A DNA stretch of 64,000 nt from the NCBI GenBank assembly GCA_900317885.1, contig ONIM01000006.1, positions 6,975 through 70,974 of the forward strand, written 5' to 3'. The position numbers and the translations under genes were made by a program. The stretch's first letter is position 1. Every line of letters starts with the position of its first letter. Under the pieces are notes generated by a model that was not told where the DNA came from, did no database searches, and saw only the letters and a program-made list of their open reading frames with translations. Source of the stretch: an uncultured Bacteroidales bacterium (lineage in GTDB: Bacteria > Bacteroidota > Bacteroidia > Bacteroidales > Paludibacteraceae). This document shows positions 29,401 to 42,653 of this stretch, piece after piece.

Positions 29401-32400
29401 TGGCCATGTAAATAAGTTGCCAACCGCTTACTTTGTTATACTTCTCAATGTTATAATCTATCTGAATCCGGTCCGGCGTATTCCGGAACGTACGGGCATC
29501 GCCAAAAGTGATCGCGGTATATTGCGCATTGATAAGGCTTTGATAATACCCCAAGCTGATTGACAAAGGCGAGAGAGACAAGATACCCGGCATGGATTCC
29601 GAAGCCTTGGTGATATAGACCGTCTGTACCTGTGCGGATTTGGAGCCCTCTGTGTGCTTGGTGGACTGCTTCACATTCTCCTCCGGCCAGTAGTAACCTT
29701 TGGTAGAACCAAATAGTCCGGAAGGATAAGTCGTCGGCGCATTGATGGTGGCGTTCCATCCGTCCGGATAGTCGCCGTCACGGCCTTCGGGGTGGCTCTT
29801 GAAAGTATGCCAGTTCTCAAAGCCCGGATCAAAAGTCAGATCGCCCGGAAAATAGAACGTGACGGTATAGGTGTGTGTCTTCTCGCCCGCCTCTACCTCA
29901 TAAACCACGCGCTTGGTATTGAGATCATCATAGACCACGGCGCCGGGCTGCGCAGTGTAGCTCAGAGTCGGCGTGGCGCCGGTCACGGAGAGGACGTAGT
30001 TATATACATCCGGACGGAAGTTCGGGATAGTCACTCCGTCGGCTTGGATGTCCATGAGTTGCGCCGGATCGTAGGGGTTCACGTGTGGGGTGAGAGTATA
30101 TACGGCATCTGCCTCCGCAGGGTTCATGGATTTGGCGATGATGACAGTCGGCGCTGCTATTCCGCCGTTTACGATTTGTACCTCTTGCTCCGGATAGTTC
30201 TTGACGATGGAGAGGATGTCGAACGAGGTAGTGCCGTATGGCAGATCCACTTGGAACTCTGTGCCGGTACTCAGATCCAGCGACCCGTAGCCGTCAATAA
30301 TTGCAGAAAGCAGGGTGTTGGGTTTGTCGGTCATCTCCAGACTATAGCTGAACGAATAAGTAGATTCCGTGCCGTCTTCGGCTCTCACGACGATGGTCGA
30401 TGTACTGCCTATCGGTGCTTCAGAAATAGTCAGAGCCTGCTCCGGCTCCGCTTTCTCAGCCGTGATAGCGGGAGATGCGGTTGTGCCGTACGGCAGTAGG
30501 ATATTCGTATAAGTATGTACCGCGGGATCGAAGGCAAAGTTATCTACACCGTCTATCTCCACGGAGTTCAGCGCGGTGTTGCTCGATTTGGCTACCGGAA
30601 AAGCTATTCTGTAGGTGCTGGTAGCAATGCCGTCTTCCGCCAGAACGGTGATGGTCGTCGTGCGATCTACCGCTCCGTGAGCTACGGTGATGATTTGACT
30701 GTTCACACCAGCCACAGGCACTACTGCCGGCACTTGTTTCGTTCGCCATGGGAGCGGATAGTTATATTCATATACGTCAGGAAGGAAGGCATCATAAATC
30801 TGTCCTCCGATATACAGCCCTGCGAGTGAGGCGTTGCTCGAAGCCGGGAACGAATCCGTGGGGAACGGCGGGATAACCACCTGGTCGGGCGAGTTGAAAC
30901 GCACGGTATAGACATTCGGCGTACCTTCCTCCGGCGTTACGACGATACGCGCCATGCCGTAGCTGGCCGATGCGCTTATGGTGATGGCCTGATTCTCTCC
31001 GGCAAGGACGGTGATCTTCGGCATCGTCGCTTCTTCCCATACAAGACTATAGTTCAGCGTCGTGGGCTCGAAACCGGTTAACTCCGCTCCGTTGAGGTAG
31101 ATCATCTGCAGGAAAGCGTTCTCGGATTTCTGCACTTCGAAATTCAGCACGTACTGACGCGTCGAACCGTCTCCGGCAGTAACCGTCAAGCGGGCAGTCC
31201 AGAGGGCTTGGTTCAGGACGATATTCACCGTCTGATAAGCATCGCCGGGGGTATACGTGATAGCCGGGATCATCTTCGTGCCGGCAGGCAGAGAGAGCGT
31301 ATAGTTCAGTACCTCCGGGTCGAAATCCGCCAAATCGGTACCGTCGATAGCGATAGCAGCGAGAGCATTGTTGGTTGATTTCTCCGTACGGAACTGCAGA
31401 CGATAAGTGGTCGTAGCGCCCGAAGCCGCTTTGACCTCAATGCGCGTCGTCCCATCTACACCACCCTCGGTTAAGGTGATGGTCTGGTAGGGATCGCCGG
31501 CGGTATAAGTGATTGTCGGGAGCACGGTAGTACCCAAAGGCAGGGTAATCGAATAAACCGTTTGCTCGGGTTGGAAGCCCTCTAAGGGTGTGCCGTCCAA
31601 CGCGATGGATGCGAGGTAAGAGTAACTCGAGGCCTCGATCTTATAAGTCAGTTTATAGGTCTTGGAGAGCGTCGTGCCGGGGATGGATACTTGAATCTGC
31701 GCTCCGCCGTCAAGGGTATTGTTCAGCAGTTGAATCTGCTGTACTCCTGCCGGATAAGCAGACTCCCAAGTGATCGTCGGTGCAGTAACCGTGCTCAGCG
31801 GCAGCGAGACGTTATAGTTGGACTTATTGGGCTGGAATCCCGCGAGCGGAGTACCGTCCACGAAGATATTCTTCAGCGTTACGTCGGTCAACGGAGCCAC
31901 GCTGAAAGCGAGGTTGTAGGTCTGCTTCGTAGTACCATCACCTGCGGTAACAACTATCGAAGCGTTGCCGTTCACCGAGGTCGGTTGGTTAATCTGCACG
32001 GTGGCCGTACCGTCCTGCGGCGTTGCGCTCACTACCGGAACGGATGTCGTACCGTACGGCAGCGAGACGTTGTAACTCGTCAGGTACGCATTGAAGCCGC
32101 TGACGCTCTCGCCGTTCACCTGAATATCCGAGAGGCGCGCGTTGTTGCTGGCCTGCGAGACGAACTTGATACGATAGGTAGTGGTCGAAGAGTTATCATT
32201 AGCCGTTACCGTGATCGTCGTCGGCTCGCCGTCCACCTGACCGTTCACGATCGTATATTCGCTTGCGCCCAGACGGCGTCCAGGGAAAGTGGCTTTGCCG
32301 CCACGGGTGTTCGTCAGCGATCCCGCGCCGCGCACCAGGGAGATCTCCGGAATAGTGGTGGCACCCTGACCTAAGGAGTATATCTGCTCGCCCGTCGTAT

Positions 32401-33313
32401 TGTCGGGATCGAAGGCTTTCCATTCGCGGCCGCCTACATAGACCTTCTGCACCTTACTGGAGTATATCAAGGTGATATCATCTACCTCTAACGTACTACC
32501 GGCGTACTGGCCGGTGTTCGCGCGGAAATCCGGGTACCGGCCTGCCGAGAGGATGACATTACATTTCGTCGGCTGATCGTCGTTGAAATAATAGATGGGC
32601 ACAACGATGCGGGTCCAGCTGTTATAGGCTTTCTTCTGGTAGAACCATCCTTCGGCAATCTGTTTGGCCTGAGTTTTCGGCGTACCGCACTCGTTGCCGT
32701 CCAGCGCCAGACGGATGTCCGACTCCTCATCCACGCAGTACTGCGGCGCAGCGGAGGAGAGGTTGGTACAGGAGAGGTTCTTCGCTTTGTAGGACTCGCC
32801 TTGCGACGTGCCCGACCATGCGTAGTAGAGAAGGTGGAAGTGTTCGTCCTTGATATGATCGCCTGCTGCCTGATCCACCGAGCCGTCATAATAACGCTTG
32901 ATCCAAACGACCATCGAGTCCGGCCGGTGCGTCCAACTGATACCTCCGTACGTACCGGCTGTAGCGTCGTTGATAGAGGTCAGACTGGAGACGTACGCCC
33001 AAGGATGACCTAAGGCCACATAACCCGGAGAGGTGGCGCCTATCGAGCCGACACCTACAAACTGGTCTTGGATCTTCAGCGCCTTACCGGATCTACCGGT
33101 AGCCTGATGGGCAAAGTTCTTATCTACGCCTAACTGCGAGACATTGGAGAAATTCCAATATTTGGGCTGTGCCGTGCTCGCAAACTGAGCACCGGACCAA
33201 TCCTCAAAATGCGGATCCGGCAACTGTTGCGCCCTTACCGGCGGGAAACAGACGATTAAGACTGCCGCTAATGACTTGAAAAGTTTACGCATATTAATAT
33301 TTTTATTAAACAT
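26447..33313 (-). CDS. Giant (2288 aa) surface protein: two PCMD-like modules, at least 16 cadherin-like beta-sandwich repeats, T9SS C-terminal sorting domain
   Basis: Signal peptide. PDPHFEDWSG...YWNFSNV and a second FDPGFENWHTF module. Recurring ~80-aa units (L..I.vDG..L.gF.P....Y.v.LP.GT...P.it...). C-terminus VGIYDMSGRLLKIE...GTYFQAASGSIYFYVFF. The start could instead be MRKLFK at 33292. Confidence 0.85.
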   Translation of the reverse strand: MFNKNINMRKLFKSLAAVLIVCFPPVRAQQLPDPHFEDWSGAQFASTAQPKYWNFSNVSQLGVDKNFAHQATGRSGKALKIQDQFVGVGSIGATSPGYVALGHPWAYVSSLTSINDATAGTYGGISWTHRPDSMVVWIKRYYDGSVDQAAGDHIKDEHFHLLYYAWSGTSQGESYKAKNLSCTNLSSAAPQYCVDEESDIRLALDGNECGTPKTQAKQIAEGWFYQKKAYNSWTRIVVPIYYFNDDQPTKCNVILSAGRYPDFRANTGQYAGSTLEVDDITLIYSSKVQKVYVGGREWKAFDPDNTTGEQIYSLGQGATTIPEISLVRGAGSLTNTRGGKATFPGRRLGASEYTIVNGQVDGEPTTITVTANDNSSTTTYRIKFVSQASNNARLSDIQVNGESVSGFNAYLTSYNVSLPYGTTSVPVVSATPQDGTATVQINQPTSVNGNASIVVTAGDGTTKQTYNLAFSVAPLTDVTLKNIFVDGTPLAGFQPNKSNYNVSLPLSTVTAPTITWESAYPAGVQQIQLLNNTLDGGAQIQVSIPGTTLSKTYKLTYKIEASSYSYLASIALDGTPLEGFQPEQTVYSITLPLGTTVLPTITYTAGDPYQTITLTEGGVDGTTRIEVKAASGATTTYRLQFRTEKSTNNALAAIAIDGTDLADFDPEVLNYTLSLPAGTKMIPAITYTPGDAYQTVNIVLNQALWTARLTVTAGDGSTRQYVLNFEVQKSENAFLQMIYLNGAELTGFEPTTLNYSLVWEEATMPKITVLAGENQAITISASASYGMARIVVTPEEGTPNVYTVRFNSPDQVVIPPFPTDSFPASSNASLAGLYIGGQIYDAFLPDVYEYNYPLPWRTKQVPAVVPVAGVNSQIITVAHGAVDRTTTITVLAEDGIATSTYRIAFPVAKSSNTALNSVEIDGVDNFAFDPAVHTYTNILLPYGTTASPAITAEKAEPEQALTISEAPIGSTSTIVVRAEDGTESTYSFSYSLEMTDKPNTLLSAIIDGYGSLDLSTGTEFQVDLPYGTTSFDILSIVKNYPEQEVQIVNGGIAAPTVIIAKSMNPAEADAVYTLTPHVNPYDPAQLMDIQADGVTIPNFRPDVYNYVLSVTGATPTLSYTAQPGAVVYDDLNTKRVVYEVEAGEKTHTYTVTFYFPGDLTFDPGFENWHTFKSHPEGRDGDYPDGWNATINAPTTYPSGLFGSTKGYYWPEENVKQSTKHTEGSKSAQVQTVYITKASESMPGILSLSPLSISLGYYQSLINAQYTAITFGDARTFRNTPDRIQIDYNIEKYNKVSGWQLIYMANSATKISGVNNFSGKTKNQWYTFSADLSYEADYVPENLDIRIVSAETLTPKDYRIGADGASNSNHFTSTMYFDNLRLNYSSVLTGVAVNGAASTIDGTNINATIDADYYGTPALAFTHAVADQMPVVTWSDELNGVRTATIRNYAEDLSYTDYTLTVTRPQSAVKTCSYTLSGRDLTVVKGSPYQTVAITTNDTAYVISVTAENGDEQTYYAAWESASSSAHVTEIAAETSIEGESTAKLMNLTTDPVLNYDREFDLDSVFMTMTSQQYVLRVFGTADDTTYTIDRNPSDNALLASMSANNTPMPEFYSETYDYLISLPSLDAFDAVPEDPEADVRYVIVPVNADYQAIYVEVTAPNGVAKKRYSVLANIRTLSSEAYLTAITADDVMLSGFAQDSYNYDLHLPAHSPIPQLASIACAGATVETQTVPNGSSAVVTFTVTSEDETVVRTYTVNVNVQPSEVCTLSELFVGGTAVTDFAPAKTDYSIELPYGTTTLPEVDYILTDNTATATKNAEEKSVTILVTAEDGDHQTSYTIVFTIAKSTNADLASIALDGTPLPEFFADEHAYTISLPYGSPTPVITAEAADPVATVAIEGTTITVTAEDGVTTWVYTLTFTYLPSTNAELQAIHLDGVLQQGYQPSLYEYADTVLYGAPMPVVTWVTGDEQQVVDTTWVGDTELTIAVTAGDGTTTAEYILTFTHKLSSNCRLADLQVNGVTVDGFDPDSMLYIVTYPIATPESALFGQEAVSATPEDKDATVTITMDGTTAQILVTAADGTRAVYVIEQEILQSSESRLEMIWLDGAEVRNYDPDTLEYTIILPQGTNLPTITATPIDTLAEWDQSMPVEIENGMEVQLFCTAQDGSTTVYILTFTYADWVASATVDTDDYLFYYYGDHQFKAVTIGIGVQVGIYDMSGRLLKIEDVPTADPADVEVMIDNQGNQKLISVAPSAAGTYFQAASGSIYFYVFFDSKTKKIAKGGKFGMQ

Positions 33314-33356: not shown

Positions 33357-33364
33357 CAAAATTA
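33357..33364 (-). promoter_or_regulatory. -7 promoter box (TAATTTTG on minus strand) for the giant surface-protein gene
   Basis: Plus-strand CAAAATTA about 45 nt upstream of the ATG at 33313. Confidence 0.45.
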
Positions 33365-33490: not shown

Positions 33491-34597
33491 TTATTGTCCG
33501 AGGCGGTGGAGATGGCAGAGCATGAGGGATCCGTCCTCCCGGCGGAGGTGCATGCCGTTTCCTTCGCAGTACGTCCATGCTTTGCAGTCTTTGCAGGGTT
33601 CGAGTTGCCGCATCCAAGAGCGGTCTCGGTAGGGCTTGAAGCCGTTTTCCCATACGGACCAGAAGGAGTCGCGGTAGATGTTTCCCTGGTAGTATTTGCC
33701 GCGGATGGAGGTGCAGGCAGAGATGGAACCGTCGATGAGGATGGAAGCGACGGAGATACCGGCGGCACATTGATACAGGTGGTCCCGGACGCGCCCCTCG
33801 TAGGTGCCGAGATAACCTTCGCAGGAATAAGAGACATGCCGCCCTGCTTCGCGCTCGGAGGCAATATAATCCATGAGGTATTGGAACTGTTCGTCGGTCA
33901 GCAGGAGTTCGGGATTAGAAGCCGCGCGGCCCATAGGGTCGATGCCGAAGACACGCCAGTCTCGCACGCCGAGCGACCAAAGCATCTCACGGATTTGGGG
34001 CAGGTGGTCTATCGTGCGTTGGTTGACACAAGTGACGACGTCGAAGGCGAGGTGAGGCCCCACCCGACCTCCCCATGAAGGGGAGGAGAGAGAGTTATTA
34101 TAATCAACTATCAGTTTGATGGCACGGGTGGCACCTTCGAAAGCCAAAGGGTGCTGACGAAGCCAGACATGGTCTTGCTCGAGACCATCGCAGGAGACCG
34201 TGATAGAGCGTAAACCGGCAGAGAGGAGTTCGTGGAATTTCTGTTCGGTCAGAGCAAGTCCGTTGGTTACCATGCCCCATGGATAGCCTCGTTGCTTGAG
34301 GGCACGGCCTATCTCTGCAAGGTCTTTGCGCATGAGGGGTTCACCGCCGGAAATGATGATCAGCACTTTGTGCGGATCGACATGCGGCGTGATCTCTGTA
34401 TCAATGACCCGAAGGAAATCTTCTGCGGGCATGTCGGGTGTCTCGATGGAAGCAACGCAATCGCTGCCGCAATGCAGGCAATGCACATTGCAGCGGAGCG
34501 TGGACTCCCAGAAGAGTTGACGGAGAGGATGCAATTCCTTCAGGTTGCGGCGGCGGATGGACTCCAGCCAGAGGGCAATTTTCAAACGGAGATTCAT
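33491..34597 (-). CDS. Radical SAM enzyme with C-terminal SPASM (auxiliary 4Fe-4S) domain
   Basis: CNVHCLHCGS (CxxxCxxC) near the N-terminus, IISGGEP. C-terminal Cys-rich region (CEGYLGTYEG...YQCAAGISV...SACTSIRG...LEPCKDCKAWTYCEGNG). Translationally linked to an upstream lipoprotein gene. Confidence 0.88.
   Translation of the reverse strand: MNLRLKIALWLESIRRRNLKELHPLRQLFWESTLRCNVHCLHCGSDCVASIETPDMPAEDFLRVIDTEITPHVDPHKVLIIISGGEPLMRKDLAEIGRALKQRGYPWGMVTNGLALTEQKFHELLSAGLRSITVSCDGLEQDHVWLRQHPLAFEGATRAIKLIVDYNNSLSSPSWGGRVGPHLAFDVVTCVNQRTIDHLPQIREMLWSLGVRDWRVFGIDPMGRAASNPELLLTDEQFQYLMDYIASEREAGRHVSYSCEGYLGTYEGRVRDHLYQCAAGISVASILIDGSISACTSIRGKYYQGNIYRDSFWSVWENGFKPYRDRSWMRQLEPCKDCKAWTYCEGNGMHLRREDGSLMLCHLHRLGQ
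34058..34086 (+). repeat. GC-rich palindromic element copy 4 (CCCCACCCGACCTCCCC-ATGAA-GGGGAGG), in frame in the minus-strand rSAM gene
   Basis: Same plus-strand orientation as copies 1-3, but the gene is on the minus strand. Translated as SPSWGGRVGPH. Confidence 0.9.
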
Positions 34598-34601
34598 AAG
34601 G

Positions 34602-34629
34602 GGTTAGCGGATTAGGGGTTAGGGATTAG
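34602..34629 (+). repeat. 7-nt tandem array (GGTTAGC/GGATTAG/GGGTTAG/GGATTAG) at the lipoprotein-rSAM junction
   Basis: Read directly. The lipoprotein stop codon (34612-34614) lies inside the array. Reverse-complement relatives occur in mfd at 56234. Confidence 0.9.
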
Positions 34630-35058
34630 TATGAAATCTGCTGTCACATAAGCGTTAAAAGGTGCTTTCTCGTCTGTAGAGAGATACGTAGAATCGTAAG
34701 TTACAGGGAACGTCAGAACTTGCTCTTGGTAGAGGAAGGAAGAGTCGGTCGCCACAACGGAAATCTGCGAAGGAAGTTCGCGTCCCCTATACCGAATCAT
34801 GGTGTACCTGCCGGCTGAATCCGTCAGGGCACAATTATACGTGAGGATGTCCTTCTCGTTCGGTTCGCGGAGGTCAAAAACAGAGATATGAATCCCACGC
34901 AGGGGTTTTTGATCTGTATCTTGCACCATGCCACGCACTATCAAACGCGGCATGCCTCCCGGTTCGAAGTCGTACGGAGGACCACTCGTACCTTTTGAGC
35001 AGGAGGTGAAGAGAACAGCCGTCAGGGCAACTACTATGAGGGTATAAATTCGGGTCAT
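34612..35058 (-). CDS. rSAM-associated putative lipoprotein (CarboxypepD_reg/transthyretin-like beta-sandwich)
   Basis: Lipobox LFTSCSKG. GMVQDTDQKPLRGIHISV...TDSAGRYTMI pattern. Paralogous to the 36783..37184 product. ATGA overlap with the upstream gene. Confidence 0.75.
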   Translation of the reverse strand: MTRIYTLIVVALTAVLFTSCSKGTSGPPYDFEPGGMPRLIVRGMVQDTDQKPLRGIHISVFDLREPNEKDILTYNCALTDSAGRYTMIRYRGRELPSQISVVATDSSFLYQEQVLTFPVTYDSTYLSTDEKAPFNAYVTADFILIPNP

Positions 35059-35573
35059 GGGCGTTTATAAAATTTAGAAGAGGTCGTTCCAAATGAGGTC
35101 TCTACACGCAGGAAATAACATCCTTGCGGGAGGTTTTCCAGAGATGTATCTTCAGAAGCAACAAGGCGTCCGTTGATGTCATAAATTGCCATCTTGAACA
35201 CTCGGATGAAACCGACAAAATCGGTCTTCCAGTAACCTATGCGGATGGTGTATTGGCCGGTACGGGTAAGGGGGCAAGAGAGTTGACCGTAACTGAGGTC
35301 ATAGAAGAAATCCTCACTTTCCCAAGAGCCTGATCCTTCTTTAACGACTACAAAAGAGACGGCGTTTTGCTGGGTTGAGATGAGGAGTGTATTTCCGACG
35401 AGAGACGCCCTGAACTGATTCGGGTCGGTGGGGTCAGGCGTGCTTCCAGTAGGTCCGTCCAAAGGGGCATAAGCACCCTCGTACATGTGCAAAGGGATAG
35501 AGATCGTATCGGTGGCCGCGGAAGAAACGGCAGACACGAGAAGAAATACTATGAGCGGAAGCACTTTACGCAT
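35055..35573 (-). CDS. Small secreted protein with T9SS C-terminal sorting domain
   Basis: The ATG at 35573 gives the signal peptide MRKVLPLIVFLLVSAVSSAA. C-terminus MAIYDINGRLVASEDTSLENLPQGCYFLRVETS...KFYK. The longer ORF start at 35639 lacks a signal peptide. Confidence 0.7.
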   Translation of the reverse strand: MRKVLPLIVFLLVSAVSSAATDTISIPLHMYEGAYAPLDGPTGSTPDPTDPNQFRASLVGNTLLISTQQNAVSFVVVKEGSGSWESEDFFYDLSYGQLSCPLTRTGQYTIRIGYWKTDFVGFIRVFKMAIYDINGRLVASEDTSLENLPQGCYFLRVETSFGTTSSKFYKRP

Positions 35574-36783
35574 GGTTGAAGGCGATGGACAAGAGGGTCT
35601 CGCGAAGCTGTTTGACGCTGACGCCAAGATGTTTGGCAATCGTATATTTATCTTTTCCTATCCCACTCTCCGCGCGGAAGAGGATTTGTGCTATCTCCGC
35701 ATAAGAGAAGCCAATCAGGACGAGTACACAAATACGGATCTCCCGTTCCGAGAGGCCTTTCTGCTCCAATTTTCCGACGATGCCGGACAATCGTGCGTTG
35801 CAGATAGCGGAGAACTGCGGGTAGTCATTCCAATGCAGTTCGTCGCGCAGAGAGGTTGATTTTCGAAGGGCTCGGCATTGCGCTTCAAGGGTGCTCGTAC
35901 GTGCTCTATGACGTATAAACCACACGCAGAAGACAGCTACCAGAACGAGCAGAACGGCGGAGAGAAGGAGCACTATTTGCCTTGGTGTGAAGCGAGAAGA
36001 AGGAGGGGTTAGTGTACTCTGAGCCAGGCGGATAGCCTCCATCCATTCCGGGTCGTTACGTTCCAAAGAACGTTGGATGTCCGTGCGGGAGGAAGAGAGT
36101 GCGCGTATGTCGTCCGCGACCGCGGCTGAGTCACAATGCGAGAGGATAAAATAGACATCGTCCAGATAGCGCGGATTGTCGGTTTGTTGCAGCACTCTGC
36201 GCGCGTAAAGGAGGGCTGAGTCGTTATGAAAAAGGAACGTGTGCGCTTGCGCGCGAAGGATGTCGAGGTAGACAGAAAGAGAGGTGTCAAGGCGGCAGTA
36301 ATAGAGCGTGGAGTCGTATTCGCCGGCATAAAGACACGCGGCGGCATGAGACTCCAGAATTTTGCTTTGCACGGGTGGCTCCGAACGAACAGAAAGCGCC
36401 GAAGCAATGAGGTCTAATGCCGTCTTTTTATCGGAGAGGACGGCTTTTTCCCATGCCATATTATTGAGCGCATAAGCCTGCGCGAGAGAGTCTTCGGCAA
36501 GCGCGAATTGCTCCAGAGATTTGGCATAGAGTGCATAAGCCGTCTCGTGTTGCTCGCAGATGCGGCACATAGTAGCCATGTTACTGAAAGAACGGCCGCG
36601 GATGGTAAATTCGGAGGAACGGACGCGTGTTGCGGCAATGAAAGATCGCATCGCCTCAACGGGCTGATTCGCTTCGCGGAAGTGCTTTCCTTGCTGATAA
36701 TAAGAGTCCGCCGTCTGCTTTGAGCAAGCGGTAAAGAGGGATAAAAAGAGGTATATAGAGGCTATGTATAAAGACGAACGCAC
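35566..36783 (-). CDS. Membrane-spanning TPR-domain / LuxR(GerE)-type HTH transcriptional regulator
   Basis: GTG start. Lipoprotein-like signal (LSLFTACSKQ). TPR-like helices. TM segment IVLLLSAVLLVLVAVFCVWFI. C-terminal LSEREIRICVLVLIGFSYAEIAQIL...IAKHLGV. Confidence 0.72.
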   Translation of the reverse strand: MRSSLYIASIYLFLSLFTACSKQTADSYYQQGKHFREANQPVEAMRSFIAATRVRSSEFTIRGRSFSNMATMCRICEQHETAYALYAKSLEQFALAEDSLAQAYALNNMAWEKAVLSDKKTALDLIASALSVRSEPPVQSKILESHAAACLYAGEYDSTLYYCRLDTSLSVYLDILRAQAHTFLFHNDSALLYARRVLQQTDNPRYLDDVYFILSHCDSAAVADDIRALSSSRTDIQRSLERNDPEWMEAIRLAQSTLTPPSSRFTPRQIVLLLSAVLLVLVAVFCVWFIRHRARTSTLEAQCRALRKSTSLRDELHWNDYPQFSAICNARLSGIVGKLEQKGLSEREIRICVLVLIGFSYAEIAQILFRAESGIGKDKYTIAKHLGVSVKQLRETLLSIAFNHA

Positions 36784-37184
36784 TATTTTTTCTTGAGGTG
36801 GAAATCCTGACGGACGATGGCTGTTTCCTTGTCAGCGCCCTTTTCTTTCTGATAAACAATATTGCTGATATGCGCCGAATCGGAAGCGTATTCTCCCGAA
36901 GGATCGACCACGATAATATCAATCTCCCGCGCGCCCATCCAACTATAGTCGCGATAGATGCCCTCCTCGTTGGTGTAGGTCCGGGGCATGATAGGCTGTC
37001 CATGACTCTTGACCGTGACCTGCATAGCCTCCAGAGCACCTTCTTTCTCCGCGTCAACGATACCCCACACCTCTAATTCCGTGTCCGGGACACCATACTT
37101 CACCATATTACAACTACCAAAACCAAAAGCGGCTAATACAATAGTTAACAGCGCGTTAACAGATGTCAGAAATGTGCGTTTCAT
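36783..37184 (-). CDS. rSAM-associated-type putative lipoprotein (paralog B1)
   Basis: MKRTFLTSVNALLTIVLAAFGFGSC-NMVKYGVP. Beta-sandwich pattern (WGIVDAEKEG...TNEEGIYRDY...IDIIVVDPSGEY) parallel to the 34612..35058 product. Confidence 0.72.
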   Translation of the reverse strand: MKRTFLTSVNALLTIVLAAFGFGSCNMVKYGVPDTELEVWGIVDAEKEGALEAMQVTVKSHGQPIMPRTYTNEEGIYRDYSWMGAREIDIIVVDPSGEYASDSAHISNIVYQKEKGADKETAIVRQDFHLKKK

Positions 37185-37396
37185 ACCTTTTCCATTTTAG
37201 AGATTTCTTCCGCCTCTTTATGAAGCATTTCATCCAGCTGCTTTTGGTCATGAATAGTGTCGCGACGGTCGGGTTCGTTCATCCAATTTTCGTCCGGAGG
37301 GGCAGGGGCATAGCAGGCAGCAAAAGTGAACGCTACCCCTGTCAGTAGGCAGAGCTTGATGCTCATCCGCAAAATGTAGTCAATCATGTTTCGCAT
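37181..37396 (-). CDS. Small acidic lipoprotein (paralog A1, 71 aa)
   Basis: MRNMIDYILRMSIKLCLLTGVAFTFAAC-YAPAPP... Its N-terminal half is near-identical to the 37698..37889 product. ATGA overlap with B1. Confidence 0.6.
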   Translation of the reverse strand: MRNMIDYILRMSIKLCLLTGVAFTFAACYAPAPPDENWMNEPDRRDTIHDQKQLDEMLHKEAEEISKMEKV

Positions 37397-37421
37397 AACG
37401 GTACGGGATTAAAATTTGCTG

Positions 37422-37429
37422 CAAAGGTA
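37422..37429 (-). promoter_or_regulatory. -7 promoter box (TACCTTTG on minus strand) for the A1-to-rSAM operon
   Basis: Plus-strand CAAAGGTA about 26 nt upstream of the ATG at 37396. Confidence 0.5.
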
Positions 37430-37491
37430 GTGTGTTTTGGCGAGATATGCAAATTTTGGTGTTGGGAAATTTATTGGGATTTTATTTTGCG

Positions 37492-37692
37492 CTATGGTTC
37501 GGGCTCCTCTTCCGGGGGCATGGGAATGCCGTAAAGTTCCTCGATGTCGTCCGACTGATAGCCGGTGCTGTCGTTCTCGGGCGGCGGGCCATACTTACAC
37601 TCCGGCGCTCTGTGGCAACTGCCTATCCCTAATGCGCCGAGTAAAAGCACAATCAGGGCATTGATGCGTGTCAGAAATTTGGTTTTGAACAT
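37492..37692 (-). CDS. Small lipoprotein (paralog B2, 66 aa, truncated B-type)
   Basis: MFKTKFLTRINALIVLLLGALGIGSC-HRAPECKYGPPP. The signal peptide and KYG-P motif match B1. Pro/Glu-rich tail. Confidence 0.55.
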   Translation of the reverse strand: MFKTKFLTRINALIVLLLGALGIGSCHRAPECKYGPPPENDSTGYQSDDIEELYGIPMPPEEEPEP

Positions 37693-37697
37693 AGTAT

Positions 37698-37889
37698 TTA
37701 GTTTTTTGGGGTTTCTTCCGCTTCTTTCTGAAGCACTTCATCAACTTGCTCCTGATCCTCGACGAAAGCGGGATCGTCTTCGTAACGCGTAGGGGCAGGA
37801 CCGTAACAAGCCGCAAACGTGAACGCGACTCCGGTCAACAAGCAGAGCTTGATGCTCATCCGCAAAATCCGGTCGATGGTGTTTCGCAT
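37698..37889 (-). CDS. Small acidic lipoprotein (paralog A2, 63 aa)
   Basis: Internal ATG of ORF 37698..38183: MRNTIDRILRMSIKLCLLTGVAFTFAAC-YGPAP. The upstream part of the long ORF is low-complexity and overlaps the neighbouring gene on the same strand. Confidence 0.6.
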   Translation of the reverse strand: MRNTIDRILRMSIKLCLLTGVAFTFAACYGPAPTRYEDDPAFVEDQEQVDEVLQKEAEETPKN

Positions 37890-37914: not shown

Positions 37915-37922
37915 CAAAGATA
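37915..37922 (-). promoter_or_regulatory. -7 promoter box (TATCTTTG on minus strand) for the A2-B2 module
   Basis: Plus-strand CAAAGATA about 26 nt upstream of the ATG at 37889, the same spacing as for A1. Confidence 0.5.
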
Positions 37923-37947: not shown

Positions 37948-38391
37948 TTATTTGCAAAAATCGCCGGAAGTTTCTTTTCGAAGGATAGCCCGGATGAAAT
38001 TATCGATGCGGGCATAGATAGTAAAATTGCCGTCTTTGTCCTTGGGTGCGATTGGATCCGGCTTGCCTTTGAGCTGCTTGTAGAAACGGGCTTTGTAGGA
38101 ATCAAGGAGTGCTTGTTTCTCGGGCGGAAGGGGCGTCTTGTTCTTGAGGGCGTCAATGAACTCTTGCGCCATATGAGAGACATTTCCGAACGCGTTCATA
38201 TTTGCCCGTTCTCCGGCGAGAATGGGGTTGGCTTTGTAGTTGCGAGGCTTAGGGGTATAGGCTTCCAGACGGCCGACTTTAGTGACATTACCGTCGTAGT
38301 CATGGTAATGTTTGCGGCGCTCAGTCATGCCGCCTTTTTCATGAGCACCGAGCATTTCTTCGATGTGTGAGGTGTGTTTGATTTTTGCCAT
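37948..38391 (-). CDS. Hypothetical basic protein (147 aa)
   Basis: Clean ORF starting MAKIKHTSHIEEMLGAHEKGG, Lys-rich, no signal peptide. Has its own -7 box upstream. Family not recognised. Confidence 0.6.
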   Translation of the reverse strand: MAKIKHTSHIEEMLGAHEKGGMTERRKHYHDYDGNVTKVGRLEAYTPKPRNYKANPILAGERANMNAFGNVSHMAQEFIDALKNKTPLPPEKQALLDSYKARFYKQLKGKPDPIAPKDKDGNFTIYARIDNFIRAILRKETSGDFCK

Positions 38392-38837: not shown

Positions 38838-39827
38838 ATGCAAGTAGATATCAGAGAATTGCAAGAGCGCGTGGAGCGCGAGAGTTCCTTTGTAGATGCT
38901 TTGACCCTTGGTATGAACCAAGTCATCGTGGGGCAGAAGCACTTAGTAGAGAGTTTGCTTATCGGTCTGTTGAGCGACGGGCACATATTGTTGGAAGGAG
39001 TGCCGGGTTTGGCAAAAACCCTCGCTATCAAGACCTTAAGCGACCTCATCAAGGCTAACTTCAGCCGTATTCAGTTTACGCCGGATCTGTTGCCTGCCGA
39101 TGTACTCGGTACGCAGATCTACAGCCAAAAGAGCGAAGAGTTCAAGATCAAGAAAGGTCCGATCTTCGCTAATTTTGTGTTGGCAGATGAGATCAACCGT
39201 GCTCCCGCGAAAGTGCAGAGTGCCTTACTCGAGGCGATGCAGGAGCGCCAAGTGACCATCGGAGAGCAGACCTTCAAGCTCGACGATCCGTTCCTCGTAC
39301 TGGCTACCCAGAACCCGATTGAGCAGGAAGGTACGTATCCTCTCCCGGAGGCGCAGACCGACCGTTTCATGCTCAAAGTGGTCATCGGGTATCCGAAGAA
39401 AGAAGAGGAGCAAGCCATCATCCGGCAGAACATCGCTTCCGAGAAGAAACAGGTGCTCCCTATCCTCTCCACCGCAGATATCATCAAGGCGCGGAAGATC
39501 GTCGAGGAGGTTTATCTGGACGAGAAGATCGAGAAATACATCGTGGACATCGTGTTTGCGACCCGCGAACCGGAGAACTACGAGCTCAAGGACCTGAAGC
39601 AGATGATCGCGTTTGGCGGCAGTCCTCGTGCAAGTATCAACCTGGCGAAGGCAGCTCGCGCGTACGCGTTTATTCATAGGAGAGGCTACGTGACGCCGGA
39701 AGACGTACGTGCCGTTTGCTACGACGTACTGCGTCACAGAATCGGGCTGACGTACGAGGCAGAAGCCAACAACATTACTACAGAAGACATTATCACAGAG
39801 GTACTCAATGCGGTACAAGTTCCTTAA
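38838..39827 (+). CDS. MoxR-family AAA+ ATPase
   Basis: Walker A GVPGLAKT, Walker B FVLADEINRA. Typical ~330 aa. First gene of the moxR-DUF58-bat operon. Confidence 0.93.
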   Translation: MQVDIRELQERVERESSFVDALTLGMNQVIVGQKHLVESLLIGLLSDGHILLEGVPGLAKTLAIKTLSDLIKANFSRIQFTPDLLPADVLGTQIYSQKSEEFKIKKGPIFANFVLADEINRAPAKVQSALLEAMQERQVTIGEQTFKLDDPFLVLATQNPIEQEGTYPLPEAQTDRFMLKVVIGYPKKEEEQAIIRQNIASEKKQVLPILSTADIIKARKIVEEVYLDEKIEKYIVDIVFATREPENYELKDLKQMIAFGGSPRASINLAKAARAYAFIHRRGYVTPEDVRAVCYDVLRHRIGLTYEAEANNITTEDIITEVLNAVQVP

Positions 39828-39828
39828 A

Positions 39829-39860
39829 CTAGGAATCTAGGAAACTAGGAGACTAGAATT
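39829..39860 (+). repeat. 8-nt tandem array x4 (CTAGGAAT/CTAGGAAA/CTAGGAGA/CTAGAATT) filling the moxR-DUF58 junction
   Basis: Begins 2 nt after the moxR TAA and ends at the base before the ATG at 39861. Confidence 0.93.
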
Positions 39861-40763
39861 ATGACTTCAGAAGAGTTATTACAACGAGTTCGGAAGATAG
39901 AGATCAAGACCCACGGGCTGAGTCGGAATATCTTCGCAGGCGAGTACCACAGCCAGTTTAAGGGTCGTGGTATGGCGTTCAGCGAGGTGCGCGAGTACCA
40001 GCCGGGCGATGATGTACGCTCCATCGACTGGAACGTGACAGCGCGGATGAACCGACCGTACATCAAGGTCTATGAAGAGGAACGCGAGTTGACGGTAATG
40101 TTGCTCGTTGATGTCAGCGGCAGTCGGAACTTTGGAACCCAAAGCCAGATGAAACGCGACACGATGGCCGAAGTAGCCGCGACACTCGCTTTCTCCACCA
40201 TCGAGAATAACGATAAAGTGGGTGTGATCTTCTTCTCCGACCAGGTGGAGAAATTTATTCCGCCGAAGAAGGGTAAGAGCCACGTGCTGCATATCATCCG
40301 CGAGTTGTTGTCGTTCGAGCCCGAACACCACGGGACAGATATCAACGCGGCGCTGCAGTACCTGACGAACGCGCAGAAGAGACGGTGTACGGCGTTCCTG
40401 ATTTCGGATCTGATGGACCCAAAATTAGTCGAAAGTCGAAAGTCGAAAGACCGCTCCACTCAAAGCCAAGTAGAACCAATCGTCATCGCAAGCAGGAAAC
40501 ACGACCTGAGCGCGATACAGATCTACGACCGCCGCGATGCGGAGATGCCGAACGTGGGACTGCTGAAAGTGAAGGACCCGGAGACCGGGGCACGCGTGTG
40601 GACGGATACGGGGCTGAAGAGCGTTCGCGAGGCGTACGCCGAGGCATGGCGCAAACAGCAGGCGGCGCTCGAGACCCTTTATACGAAGACCGGCATGAAC
40701 CACGTGTCCATGCGGACGGATGAGGACTACGTGAAAAAGCTAATGATGCTTTTTCACAATTGA
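39861..40763 (+). CDS. DUF58 (vWA-like) domain protein
   Basis: FKGRGMAFSEVREYQPGDDVRSIDWNVTAR and LLVDVSGS motifs. Canonical partner of MoxR. Confidence 0.9.
   Translation: MTSEELLQRVRKIEIKTHGLSRNIFAGEYHSQFKGRGMAFSEVREYQPGDDVRSIDWNVTARMNRPYIKVYEEERELTVMLLVDVSGSRNFGTQSQMKRDTMAEVAATLAFSTIENNDKVGVIFFSDQVEKFIPPKKGKSHVLHIIRELLSFEPEHHGTDINAALQYLTNAQKRRCTAFLISDLMDPKLVESRKSKDRSTQSQVEPIVIASRKHDLSAIQIYDRRDAEMPNVGLLKVKDPETGARVWTDTGLKSVREAYAEAWRKQQAALETLYTKTGMNHVSMRTDEDYVKKLMMLFHN
40421..40452 (+). repeat. 7-nt tandem array (GTCGAAA x3, preceded by AAATTA) in frame in the DUF58 gene
   Basis: aaaattagtcgaaagtcgaaagtcgaaagacc. Encodes KLVESRKSKDR. Same element and same reading frame as in murD. Confidence 0.93.
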
Positions 40764-40765
40764 TA

Positions 40766-40793
40766 ATTTATGATTTATGATTTATAATTTATT
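40766..40793 (+). repeat. 7-nt tandem array x4 (ATTTATG/ATTTATA/ATTTATT) at the DUF58/next-gene junction
   Basis: Same unit as at 18384. It supplies the ATG at 40777. Confidence 0.9.
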
Positions 40794-41670
40794 ATTAGCA
40801 ATAGTAGTTAGCGCGAGTATCGACTCGACGATGCTGATGATCGGCGACCAGACGGCGATGCACCTGAGTGTGACGCAGGAGGCGAACGAGCGGGTCGAGA
40901 TGCCTGTTTTCGGCGAGACGCTGCAGGACGGTATTGAGATCGTGGACCGCTCAGCGGTGGACACCACTACCCTGCCCGACGGCCGTTTGCAGTTGAGCCA
41001 GAAGCTGACGCTGACGTCGTTCAAAGACAGCCTCTTTGCTGTGGCGCCGATAGCGGTTGTGAGCGGCGGAGACACTTTCTTTACTGACCCTATGGCGCTA
41101 AACGTCATCCAGCCGTTTGAGGTGGACAGTTCACTCGCTATCACGGATATCAAGGACATCGAGAAAGCACCGATATACTGGTGGGGCATCATCCGGTGGA
41201 TCCTGCTCGCATTGGCAATCATCGGGCTCTTCGTAGGCGCATACTACGGCGTACTATGGTACCGCAAGCATTTCCTCAAAGAGGAAGAGGTGATCGAACT
41301 CGAACTGCTGCGTCCTGCGGATGAAGTAGCCCTCGAGAAACTGGACGAAATAAAGGCGCAGAAGATCTGGAAAGACGGTAAGGTGAAGGAGTACCAGACC
41401 GAACTGACGGATGTCGTGCGGGAGTATATAGGTCGCCGTTTTGACGTACAGAGTACGGAGAAGACCTCCGACGAGACGCTGCGTGCGATGAAACCGCTTA
41501 TCGACAAAGAGCTCTTTGCCAAACTCAGTAAGATGCTGCAACTCGCCGACCTCGTGAAGTTCGCCAAATGGCACACGACGCCGGATGAGAACGAGCAGGC
41601 ACTAAGCACGGCGTATGAGTTTGTCAATGAGACCAAGGAAGTACCAAGTACAAAGGAGGAGGAAGTATGA
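40777..41670 (+). CDS. Bat-operon membrane protein (BatD-like N-terminal region plus TM helix, possibly DUF4381-type)
   Basis: 297 aa. TM segment IIRWILLALAIIGLFVGAYYGVLWY. Position between DUF58 and batA. Confidence 0.65.
   Translation: MIYNLLLAIVVSASIDSTMLMIGDQTAMHLSVTQEANERVEMPVFGETLQDGIEIVDRSAVDTTTLPDGRLQLSQKLTLTSFKDSLFAVAPIAVVSGGDTFFTDPMALNVIQPFEVDSSLAITDIKDIEKAPIYWWGIIRWILLALAIIGLFVGAYYGVLWYRKHFLKEEEVIELELLRPADEVALEKLDEIKAQKIWKDGKVKEYQTELTDVVREYIGRRFDVQSTEKTSDETLRAMKPLIDKELFAKLSKMLQLADLVKFAKWHTTPDENEQALSTAYEFVNETKEVPSTKEEEV
41641..41656 (-). repeat. Copy of the CCTTTGTACTTGGTAC element (reverse orientation) at the 3' end of the 40777..41670 gene
   Basis: Plus-strand gtaccaagtacaaagg is the exact reverse complement of the motif found twice in rimP (52358, 52450). 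Confidence 0.9.
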
Positions 41671-42653
41671 CATTTGCTAATCCAGGATATTTATTTTTAT
41701 TACTGCTGCTGATCCCCGTGATCGGATGGTATCTGTACGAGCTTCGCAAGTCCGATGCCAGCGTCCAGATCTCGGACACCAGCACTCTGGCGGCGCAACC
41801 GAAGAGTTGGCGGATATGGTTGCTGCACGTGCCGTTCGGTCTTCGTGTAGCGGCTATCACCTTATTATCACTCGCGCTCGCGCGCCCGCAGTTGACTAAC
41901 CGCTGGTCGTCGGAGTCGACCGAAGGTATCGACATCATGATGGCGCTGGATATATCCGGTACGATGTTAGCGGAGGACCTGCGACCGAACCGTCTGGAGG
42001 CCGCCAAACAAGTAGCTTCGGATTTCGTGATCGCGCGGCCGAATGACCAGATCGGTCTGGTGGTCTTTGCCGGAGAGAGTTTCACGCAATGCCCTCTGAC
42101 GACGGATCACGCGGTGCTCGTCAACCTCTTCAAATCCGTGGAATACGGTATGATTGAAGACGGTACCGCCATCGGTCTGGGTCTTGCGAACGCCGTGAAC
42201 CGAATGAAAGACAGCGAGACGAAATCGAAAGTGGTGATTCTCCTGACGGATGGTTCGAACAACCGCGGTGATATCGACCCGCAGACAGCAGCGCAGATTG
42301 CCAAGACCTACGGAATCCGCGTTTATACGGTAGGCGTAGGTAGCTACGGGCAGACCCGCGTGCCGGTGAAGACGCCGATGGGAATGCAGTACGTGACGAT
42401 GGACTCGGAGTTCGACGAAGGCACGCTGCGCGGCATCGCGGAGACAACCGGAGGTCAGTATTTCCGAGCGACCGACAACACCAGCCTCAAACGTATCTAC
42501 GAGCAGATCGACCAGTTGGAGAAGACCAAACTGCGTGTTCGCGAATACAGCAAACACACAGAGAACTTCGCGCCGTTCCTCTTCGCCGCACTATTCTGCC
42601 TCCTGTTAGAGGTCATTTTGAGATATTTTGTATTGAGAACTATTGCACAATAA
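41667..42653 (+). CDS. batA: Aerotolerance protein BatA (vWA domain, membrane-anchored)
   Basis: N-terminal TM helices. vWA MIDAS DISGTM/DGSNN-type motifs (MALDISGTMLAED, LLTDGSNNRG). C-terminal TM. Operon context. Confidence 0.88.
   Translation: MTFANPGYLFLLLLLIPVIGWYLYELRKSDASVQISDTSTLAAQPKSWRIWLLHVPFGLRVAAITLLSLALARPQLTNRWSSESTEGIDIMMALDISGTMLAEDLRPNRLEAAKQVASDFVIARPNDQIGLVVFAGESFTQCPLTTDHAVLVNLFKSVEYGMIEDGTAIGLGLANAVNRMKDSETKSKVVILLTDGSNNRGDIDPQTAAQIAKTYGIRVYTVGVGSYGQTRVPVKTPMGMQYVTMDSEFDEGTLRGIAETTGGQYFRATDNTSLKRIYEQIDQLEKTKLRVREYSKHTENFAPFLFAALFCLLLEVILRYFVLRTIAQ

Follow-up and report, generated by a model that had tools for sequence, protein, structure and literature searches.

A stretch of 64,000 nt from an uncultured Bacteroidales bacterium of the Paludibacteraceae (GCA_900317885.1, contig ONIM01000006.1, positions 6,975-70,974 of the forward strand; hereafter the window, to whose positions all unlabelled coordinates refer) contains a minus-strand locus of rumen Bacteroidales (33491-37889), in which a radical SAM/SPASM enzyme (33491-34597, 368 aa) is encoded together with a set of small lipoproteins. 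The locus belongs to a curated, uncharacterised family and appears to be an expanded copy of the TIGR04133/TIGR04134 radical SAM/lipoprotein system, whose two partners would, from the comparative evidence, form an enzyme-substrate pair. The probability that the enzyme is a cytoplasmic maturase acting on Tyr-Gly (YG) sites of these lipoproteins is put at roughly 0.55. The substrate relation is strengthened by the coupled adjacency of the two genes in two Bacteroidales clades and in Lachnospiraceae, by two fusions of the motif to the enzyme and by the conservation of YG islands. TIGR04133 and TIGR04134 are hypothetical equivalogs in NCBIfam, with the JGI name 'radical SAM enzyme (rSAM/lipoprotein system)'; homologues bear these names and the host is likewise a member of Bacteroidales. 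This pair had been named in an original prediction made from the window, and hidden Markov model (HMM) searches bear the naming out, since the enzyme scores 512.2 bits and the lipoprotein B1 (36783-37184, 133 aa) 50.2 bits against curated cut-offs of 425 and 39.8 bits, respectively.

The match of the enzyme to TIGR04133 (E=6e-154) extends over residues 3-366 and profile positions 1-349 of 350, and with 56.4 and 30.4 bits, respectively, Pfam Radical_SAM and SPASM are both above cut-off, making it a true TIGR04133 radical SAM/SPASM protein. The CxxxCxxC motif and the Cys-rich SPASM-type C-terminus described earlier are both found, as CNVHCLHC at residues 36-43 (C36, C40 and C43) and as seven further cysteines in the SPASM part, and C36, C40, C43, C259, C277, C295, C335, C338, C344 and C361 are invariant over 35 homologues. 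Neither a signal peptide nor a membrane segment is present in the enzyme, in which about 25 residues precede the cluster motif. The AlphaFold2 model (predicted local distance difference test, pLDDT, 87.8) consists of a 20-residue N-terminal helix, a partial TIM barrel and the SPASM part, leaving no room for an RRE domain. In Foldseek searches with this model SkfB, PqqE and anSME rank first, anSME giving the best full-length template-modelling score (0.65-0.68), so that the modelled fold appears closest to the peptide- or protein-modifying SPASM enzymes, anSME included. The family is large and strongly conserved: 6808 of the 8000 candidates scored are homologues at E<=1e-30, and a search of representatives gave 255 clusters (50% identity) at the same threshold, with 78-95% identity across the best 120 clusters; many of the 255 clusters score 250-356 bits on TIGR04133, below the cut-off.

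On the lipoprotein side, B1 is the member that passes the TIGR04134 model, whereas the 148-aa lipoprotein encoded at 34612-35058, for which a search against this model had also been suggested, reaches only 31.4 of the required 39.8 bits, with a weak CarboxypepD_reg match in addition. For B2 (37492-37692, 66 aa), A1 (37181-37396, 71 aa) and A2 (37698-37889, 63 aa) no TIGR04134 match at E<=0.01 and no other family match were obtained. Putative lipoboxes could be read by eye after a hydrophobic segment in all five proteins, as FGSC in B1, IGSC in B2, FAAC in A1 and A2 and FTSC in the 148-aa protein. B1 starts with a conserved signal peptide (..SVNALL..), followed by the lipobox Cys25, a tether with K29-Y-G-V-P33 (37086-37100, as read in the sequence and fitting the family consensus) and a predicted beta-sandwich ending in LKKK. 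Its AlphaFold2 model (pLDDT 70.8) places a helix at the signal peptide, a disordered stretch around Cys25 and KYGVP, and a seven-strand sandwich at residues 35-130 that matches transthyretin- or carboxypeptidase-regulatory-like folds in Foldseek, in agreement with the beta-sandwich architecture proposed for B1. B2 has no sandwich and consists of a signal peptide of the same type (..TRINALI..), Cys26 and two sites read in the sequence, KYGPP (37582-37596) and LYGIP (37522-37536). The acidic lipoproteins A2 and A1 have their site directly at the lipidation Cys, as Cys28-Y-G-P-A-P in A2 (37797-37808) and as the degenerate Cys28-Y-A-P in A1.

The proposal that A2-B2 is a duplicated module upstream of A1-B1 is supported by 64% identity between A1 and A2 and, over the first 36 residues, 47% between B1 and B2, which have nothing in common apart from the signal peptide and the first YG site; similarity of the DNA reaches through the promoter region. 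The earlier claim that five lipoproteins carry a YG-x-P motif close to the lipidation Cys holds for A2 (C-YGPAP), B2 (KYGPP with LYGIP) and B1 (KYGVP), and in the degenerate form C-YAPAP for A1. It does not extend to the 148-aa protein, which was rejected as a motif carrier, as its SGPPYDF is not the motif and all 15 orthologues are devoid of YG.P and of the conserved signal peptide alike.

Family-wide motif statistics were taken from genome loci; a homologue search with B1 gave only 20 near-identical proteins. The first set comprises 80 loci around close homologues of the enzyme (70-96% identical), all from metagenome-assembled genomes (MAGs) of Bacteroidales/Paludibacteraceae, whose six-frame open reading frames (ORFs) were searched with iterated profiles of each window protein. 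Three bins with Paludibacteraceae-type loci (L053, L065 and L067) are labelled Dialister, Bacteroides uniformis or Azospirillum in the public records, which likely reflects mis-binning or mislabelling. B-type proteins, present in 64 of the 80 loci, are very variable, with lengths of 60-200 residues. In an alignment of 52 unique short forms, conservation is confined to two kinds of island, x-Y-G-x-P in one to four copies and the signal peptide (consensus MKKKiLtRiNvlL..G.lSL.L..aGC), and some of the x-Y-G-x-P copies lie far from the lipobox, at C-termini. At 155 YG sites in 85 neighbouring ORFs, Tyr is preceded mainly by Lys (78), Leu (37), Glu (20) or Met (11), and Gly is followed by Val (85), Pro (23) or Ile (17), with Pro as the next residue at 104 sites. 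Tyr and Gly are co-invariant in the motif, the middle residue of Y-x-[VIPTACSM]-P being Gly at 104/106 sites and the first residue before G-[VIPTACSM]-P, read as x-G-[VIPTACSM]-P, being Tyr at 104/106. The 70 small family proteins hold 104 YG.P sites as compared to a background of 0.23 per 1000 residues in the six-frame ORFs of the 80 loci, far beyond chance, and in 89 other predicted lipoproteins of these loci no YG lies 30 residues or less from the lipobox Cys. An Asn element in the signal peptide is similarly characteristic, being found in 62/70 and 53/55 family members vs 7/89 other lipoproteins.

Hybrid forms were observed beside these. In L022 (9607-10086, minus strand) and L080 (2640-3077) hybrids are encoded that join an A-type signal peptide (..KLCMLTGVAFTFAAC) and Cys-Tyr-Gly to a B-type beta-sandwich, the YG site being constant while the type of signal peptide is exchangeable. 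The beta-sandwich forms of both Bacteroidales clades (L004-L160; in B1 at 36783-36810) share a ...(D/N)(F/I/V)xLKKK tail.

The YG lipoprotein gene is coupled to the enzyme gene. With adjacency defined as an end of the YG lipoprotein gene within -60 to +120 nt of the radical SAM start, such a gene adjoins the enzyme gene in 47 of the 78 Paludibacteraceae loci with enough upstream sequence, with a 4-nt overlap in 18, and the closest relatives (L001-L003, enzyme 95-96% identical) show the order hypothetical-A-B2-radical SAM, B2 being the form that abuts the enzyme gene. A second clade of 80 rumen-metagenome loci was retrieved with P0121, an enzyme 52% identical to that of the window and scoring 569 bits on TIGR04133. 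There a lipoprotein of about 155 aa, of the form MKVRFNRWYNAVLTALLSMLGYGCS...(M/E)YG.P..EYG.P.ADY.V.G.VTDE...KLKKK, is encoded directly upstream of the enzyme in 64 of 71 loci (4-nt overlap in 48), and since this clade has the YG tether too, the tether belongs to the whole TIGR04134 family and not to the window locus alone.

Outside Bacteroidales, enzyme homologues 32-37% identical to the window enzyme were found in a Lachnospiraceae clade (Agathobacter, Roseburia), one of those scoring below the TIGR04133 cut-off. Immediately upstream, three of the four contexts examined have a gene for a small acidic lipoprotein with a site of this type (VYGAP, VYGPP or LYGPE). The sites are ...MTACGVYGAPEP...IIGVYGPQEDYE in L161, three VYGPP in L165, the first immediately following the lipobox Cys, and CLYGPEP with DLYGPMP in L167. 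The pairing thus recurs in two bacterial phyla. In two further relatives, P0169 and P0271 (60% identical), three VYG..P repeats precede the enzyme as an in-frame N-terminal fusion and no signal peptide is present, which constitutes Rosetta-stone evidence pointing to a direct relation of enzyme and motif that would be independent of lipidation.

Other enlarged relatives of the enzyme were observed as well. P0215, P0234 and P0247, and P0146, P0172 and P0267, are fused to a membrane M50 domain (site-2 protease-like, HExxH) or consist of two tandem radical SAM/SPASM modules, and in P0175, P0181, P0186 and P0214 a TIGR04133-like radical SAM/SPASM domain is followed by some 200 additional C-terminal residues, which show an HxHPx(n)SxxD signature resembling JAMM/MPN metalloproteases and have no Pfam match. 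The M50- and JAMM-like fusions would fit peptide or protein maturation better than cofactor chemistry. Two apparent fusions in the first locus set were rejected, one joining the cytoplasmic enzyme to a periplasmic protein with PD40 and OmpA domains (L030, 3043-5673, 876 aa), and one without a recognisable extra domain (L036, 7902-11108, 1068 aa); both are probably due to lost stop codons or MAG assembly errors.

Because the lipoproteins leave the cytoplasm in which the enzyme stays, an encounter is possible only ahead of their Sec translocation, and the topology agrees with the earlier suggestion that modification would precede export. In the mechanism that we infer, the enzyme would bind newly made precursors of this dedicated lipoprotein family and would probably recognise their signal peptide (R-x-N-A/V-L-L type) as leader, for which it is the obvious candidate because it is conserved and family-specific. 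A 5'-deoxyadenosyl radical would then be used to modify Tyr-Gly of x-Y-G-x-P, located past the lipobox Cys in the disordered tether, and the modified precursor would subsequently be exported by Sec, lipidated and anchored in a membrane. The candidate substrates in the window would be B2 with two sites, B1 with one and A2 with its Cys-Tyr-Gly; A1 with Tyr-Ala is doubtful, and the 148-aa protein offers no predicted site. The original assignment of the lipoproteins as substrates therefore has strong comparative support for the YG-bearing ones, and does not extend to the 148-aa protein, which is motif-less like its orthologues. A comparable order of events is found with anSME, also a SPASM enzyme without an RRE domain, which modifies signal-peptide-bearing sulfatases in the cytoplasm before their export, including in Bacteroides. 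Unlike anSME substrates, the five lipoproteins have, by eye, no C/S-x-P-x-R sulfatase motif and the target would be Tyr-Gly, and the anSME model TIGR03942 is not among the best 25 matches of the window enzyme, while P0121 reaches 57.8 bits on it vs a cut-off of 349.

Several observations weigh against a maturase acting on these sites. The gene adjoining the enzyme gene in the window is without the motif, no YG gene is adjacent in 31 of the 78 Paludibacteraceae loci, and in the fourth Lachnospiraceae context (L166) a YolD-like gene stands upstream instead. Among A-type proteins only 14/22 have Cys-Tyr-Gly-Pro-Ala-Pro, whereas 8/22, including A1, have Cys-Tyr-Ala-Pro-Ala-Pro, and it is uncertain whether A-type proteins are substrates. 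Pfam and NCBIfam scans of the operon revealed no RRE, PlpY-like or small PqqD-like partner. The similarity of the enzyme is, moreover, not specific to spliceases: the model TIGR04103, which we take to be equivalent to IPR026482, is its second-best NCBIfam match (103 bits over residues 27-311), relatives score 55-134 bits on it for a single radical SAM domain, all below the cut-off of 725 bits, and the runner-up model varies across the family (TIGR04053, AhbD, NirJ2, MftC, TIGR04103), always far below cut-offs. HMM similarity of the enzyme was hence rejected as a guide to chemistry, as a runner-up that changes between members is not diagnostic; the protein is a peptide- or protein-maturase-like SPASM protein whose own sequence gives no clue to the chemistry.

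Some of the same observations would suit an enzyme that acts on a small molecule or cofactor, with the lipoprotein as a co-expressed carrier or receptor and x-Y-G-x-P as a structural tether or sorting element. The closest solved structure by sequence is BlsE (E=4e-11), a small-molecule enzyme, no splicease structure being among the matches; AhbD and NirJ models are among the next-best families, the 31 loci without an adjacent lipoprotein gene would be accommodated, and Pro-rich tethers are common in lipoproteins in general. Such a role is nevertheless distinctly unlikely, because the cytoplasmic enzyme and the exported lipoprotein meet before export only, and because the motif is also found at C-termini, well away from the lipobox, recurs in Firmicutes lipoproteins, is fused to the enzyme without a signal peptide and is present in no other predicted lipoprotein of 160 loci, with relatives of the enzyme being joined to peptidase domains.

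If the enzyme is taken as a maturase of the YG sites, the leading chemistry, held tentatively and with the odds against it, would by analogy be splicing, in which a tyramine equivalent is cut out at XYG as by spliceases; it is ranked first because the sites here coincide in sequence with the XYG from which spliceases remove tyramine (PlpA core PLYGLP). The spliceases PlpX, PcpX and RhaX (Morinaka 2018, Scott 2022) are likewise radical SAM/SPASM enzymes and excise tyramine at XYG (PMC11414181, PMC10533398, PMC11626197), the splice site being defined as XYG in the first two of these papers (PMC11414181, PMC10533398). Spliceotide substrates also contain one to several X-Y-G sites followed by a hydrophobic residue and Pro, PLYGLP in PlpA comparing with KYGVP, LYGIP and AMYGVP here; PlpA naturally has the cores PIRPLYGLPI and AVAAMYGVVFP (PMC10533398), and RcsA and RasA use MYG and LYG (PMC11626197). 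Some spliceases are binary and work without a Y protein, a leader helix being predicted to bind the enzyme directly (PMC11414181), and docking of such a helix is reported for RhaX-RhaA. The PlpX family corresponds to IPR026482 (PMC11002830), and the window enzyme fails TIGR04103 and is not specifically closer to spliceases than to other SPASM families. Two further differences concern the substrates: in place of Nif11/NHLP-type cytoplasmic precursors, Sec/lipobox lipoproteins are proposed here, of which some contain a folded beta-sandwich, and their Tyr is preceded mostly by Lys or Glu.

The same pair and site could also support another chemistry, such as a Tyr-centred C-C or ether cross-link (a three-residue cyclophane on Y-G-V/I/P/T, as in triceptides), C-beta hydroxylation or epimerisation, which is considered rather improbable. 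Y-G-[V/I/P/T] is formally an aromatic-X2-X3 repeat, and triceptide precursors resemble the present proteins in being small, encoded beside a SPASM enzyme and endowed with repeated short aromatic-X-X sites. In HMM scores the enzyme stands no closer to spliceases than to several other SPASM families, NF041707 (YhhB) reaching, for instance, 66.5 bits for P0123, and the Tyr-Ala-Pro variants of A-type proteins would be tolerable for a cyclophane former. To our knowledge, X2 is free in known cyclophane motifs, whereas the middle residue here is Gly in 104/106 sites, and such strictness speaks against a cyclophane of the generic aromatic-X-X type. Ala and Pro are among the residues that follow Gly, the hydrophobic-Y-G-hydrophobic-P context is a near-literal match to the PlpA splice sites, and NF041707 is not among the best 25 matches of the window enzyme.

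In the literature searched, TIGR04133/TIGR04134 returned only one unrelated mention and the family names none, with no chemistry proposed; the parts of the splicease papers that were available contain no link to Bacteroidales. The splicease survey of Scott 2022 (Chem 8:2659) is reported to have mined YG-rich ORFs beside all SPASM enzymes, arriving at YG-rich systems in 189 genera and at 939 predicted and 27 tested systems, and may already cover this type of system.

The window copy departs from a plain TIGR04133/TIGR04134 system by the duplicated A-B module, by the short forms A and B2 that are missed by the model, and by three genes that, with A1-B1, stand between B2 and the enzyme gene and would represent an inserted accessory cassette. 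These encode a 405-aa protein with a lipobox/TPR part, a membrane segment and a LuxR-like helix-turn-helix (HTH) (35566-36783), a 172-aa secreted protein with a sorting domain of the type IX secretion system (T9SS) at its C-terminus (35055-35573), and the 148-aa beta-sandwich paralogue without a YG motif. Because the cassette is inserted, the gene next to the enzyme is this motif-less paralogue, and the true TIGR04134 member B1 lies 2.2 kb upstream in the same operon. The T9SS sorting domain is confirmed by TIGR04183 (28 bits over residues 127-170, cut-off 23), whereas the naming of the 405-aa protein as a TPR/LuxR regulator finds matches of both kinds, each below threshold: TPR_12 with 26.2 vs 30.1 bits, and GerE, LuxR HTH-like over the C-terminal 107 residues, with 18.3 vs 23.5 bits (E=0.0018).

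Homologues of the regulator occur in 19, of the T9SS protein in 17 and of the 148-aa type in 15 of the 80 loci, the 148-aa type always beside the other two, so that the whole cassette is present in 15/80. Its position varies, being upstream, downstream or kilobases away from the radical SAM gene, and it is absent in the nearest relatives L001-L003. With this limited occurrence and variable placement, the regulator was rejected as an integral part of the system and the proposed self-regulation of the locus by the embedded regulator is unsupported. A self-contained six-gene operon with five lipoprotein substrates under an embedded membrane TPR/LuxR regulator, as originally drawn, is accordingly very unlikely. 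It would account for overlapping genes on one strand behind one promoter-like box and for the 148-aa protein as a distant TIGR04134-like paralogue at 31.4 bits. It conflicts with the want of YG.P and of the conserved signal peptide in that protein and its 15 orthologues, with the shifting cassette genes (15-19/80 loci) and with the sub-threshold HTH and TPR matches.

The gene arrangement itself was drawn correctly, all eight minus-strand ORFs and their junctions being found as described; public gene calls on identical rumen-metagenome contigs show the same gene set, and for A2 the assignment by ORF list and A1/A2 comparison agrees with them. Junctions are ATGA between A1 and B1, TAGTG between B1 and the regulator gene, ATGCGTAA between the regulator and T9SS genes and ATGA between the latter and the gene of the 148-aa lipoprotein, which is followed after 14 nt by the ATG of the radical SAM gene. 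The TAnnTTTG box reported at 37422 is present as TACCTTTG (37422-37429, minus strand), a Bacteroidetes -7-type box about 25 nt upstream of the A1 ATG, and the promoter-like TATCTTTG (37915-37922, minus strand) lies upstream of A2 inside the duplicated promoter region. With 37 occurrences in the window vs 27 expected, enrichment of this 8-mer is mild and each box alone is weak evidence; the argument is their position, in both cases some 25-30 nt upstream of the start codon of an A-type gene, and not their count.

Among the neighbouring genes, a 147-aa basic protein without a signal peptide or a Pfam/NCBIfam match is encoded directly upstream of A2 (37948-38391, minus strand) and keeps this position upstream of the A-type gene in 11 related loci. 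Directly downstream of the enzyme gene, a 2288-aa protein (26447-33313, minus strand) combines Cadherin-like beta-sandwich repeats (PF12733) with a sorting-type tail at its C-terminus. Its gene is served by a separate TAATTTTG box (33357-33364), homologues are found in 18/80 related loci, for instance downstream of the radical SAM gene in L046, and the protein contains three YG.P, which is unremarkable for its length. A divergent Bat/MoxR aerotolerance-type operon on the plus strand (38838-42653; MoxR AAA_3 ATPase, DUF58/VWA, an unassigned 297-aa protein and BatA-VWA) has no evident link to the radical SAM system.

TIGR04133 enzymes are abundant in gut, oral and rumen anaerobes, and the comparative result narrows the question of what they do to one dipeptide in one small protein. 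A more specific possibility, quite doubtful and drawn by analogy, is that TIGR04133 enzymes are spliceases of exported lipoproteins which excise tyramine before Sec export; because ketoamides are protease-inhibitor warheads, the products would be surface-tethered ketoamide protease inhibitors. If true, membrane-anchored proteins with one to four electrophilic ketoamides (beta-Lys, beta-Leu, beta-Glu, beta-Met, beta-Val) would be displayed as surface-tethered inhibitors of trypsin-, chymotrypsin- or elastase-like proteases of host or competitors, and would be the first backbone-spliced lipoproteins, made by gut and rumen Bacteroidales and Lachnospiraceae. Were splicing to be the chemistry, ribosomal beta-amino-acid (ketoamide) chemistry would extend beyond cytoplasmic precursors of peptides that are synthesised ribosomally and modified post-translationally (RiPPs) to exported lipid-anchored proteins of dominant gut taxa, with obvious implications for host-protease interactions and for compact leader-plus-tag systems in protein engineering.

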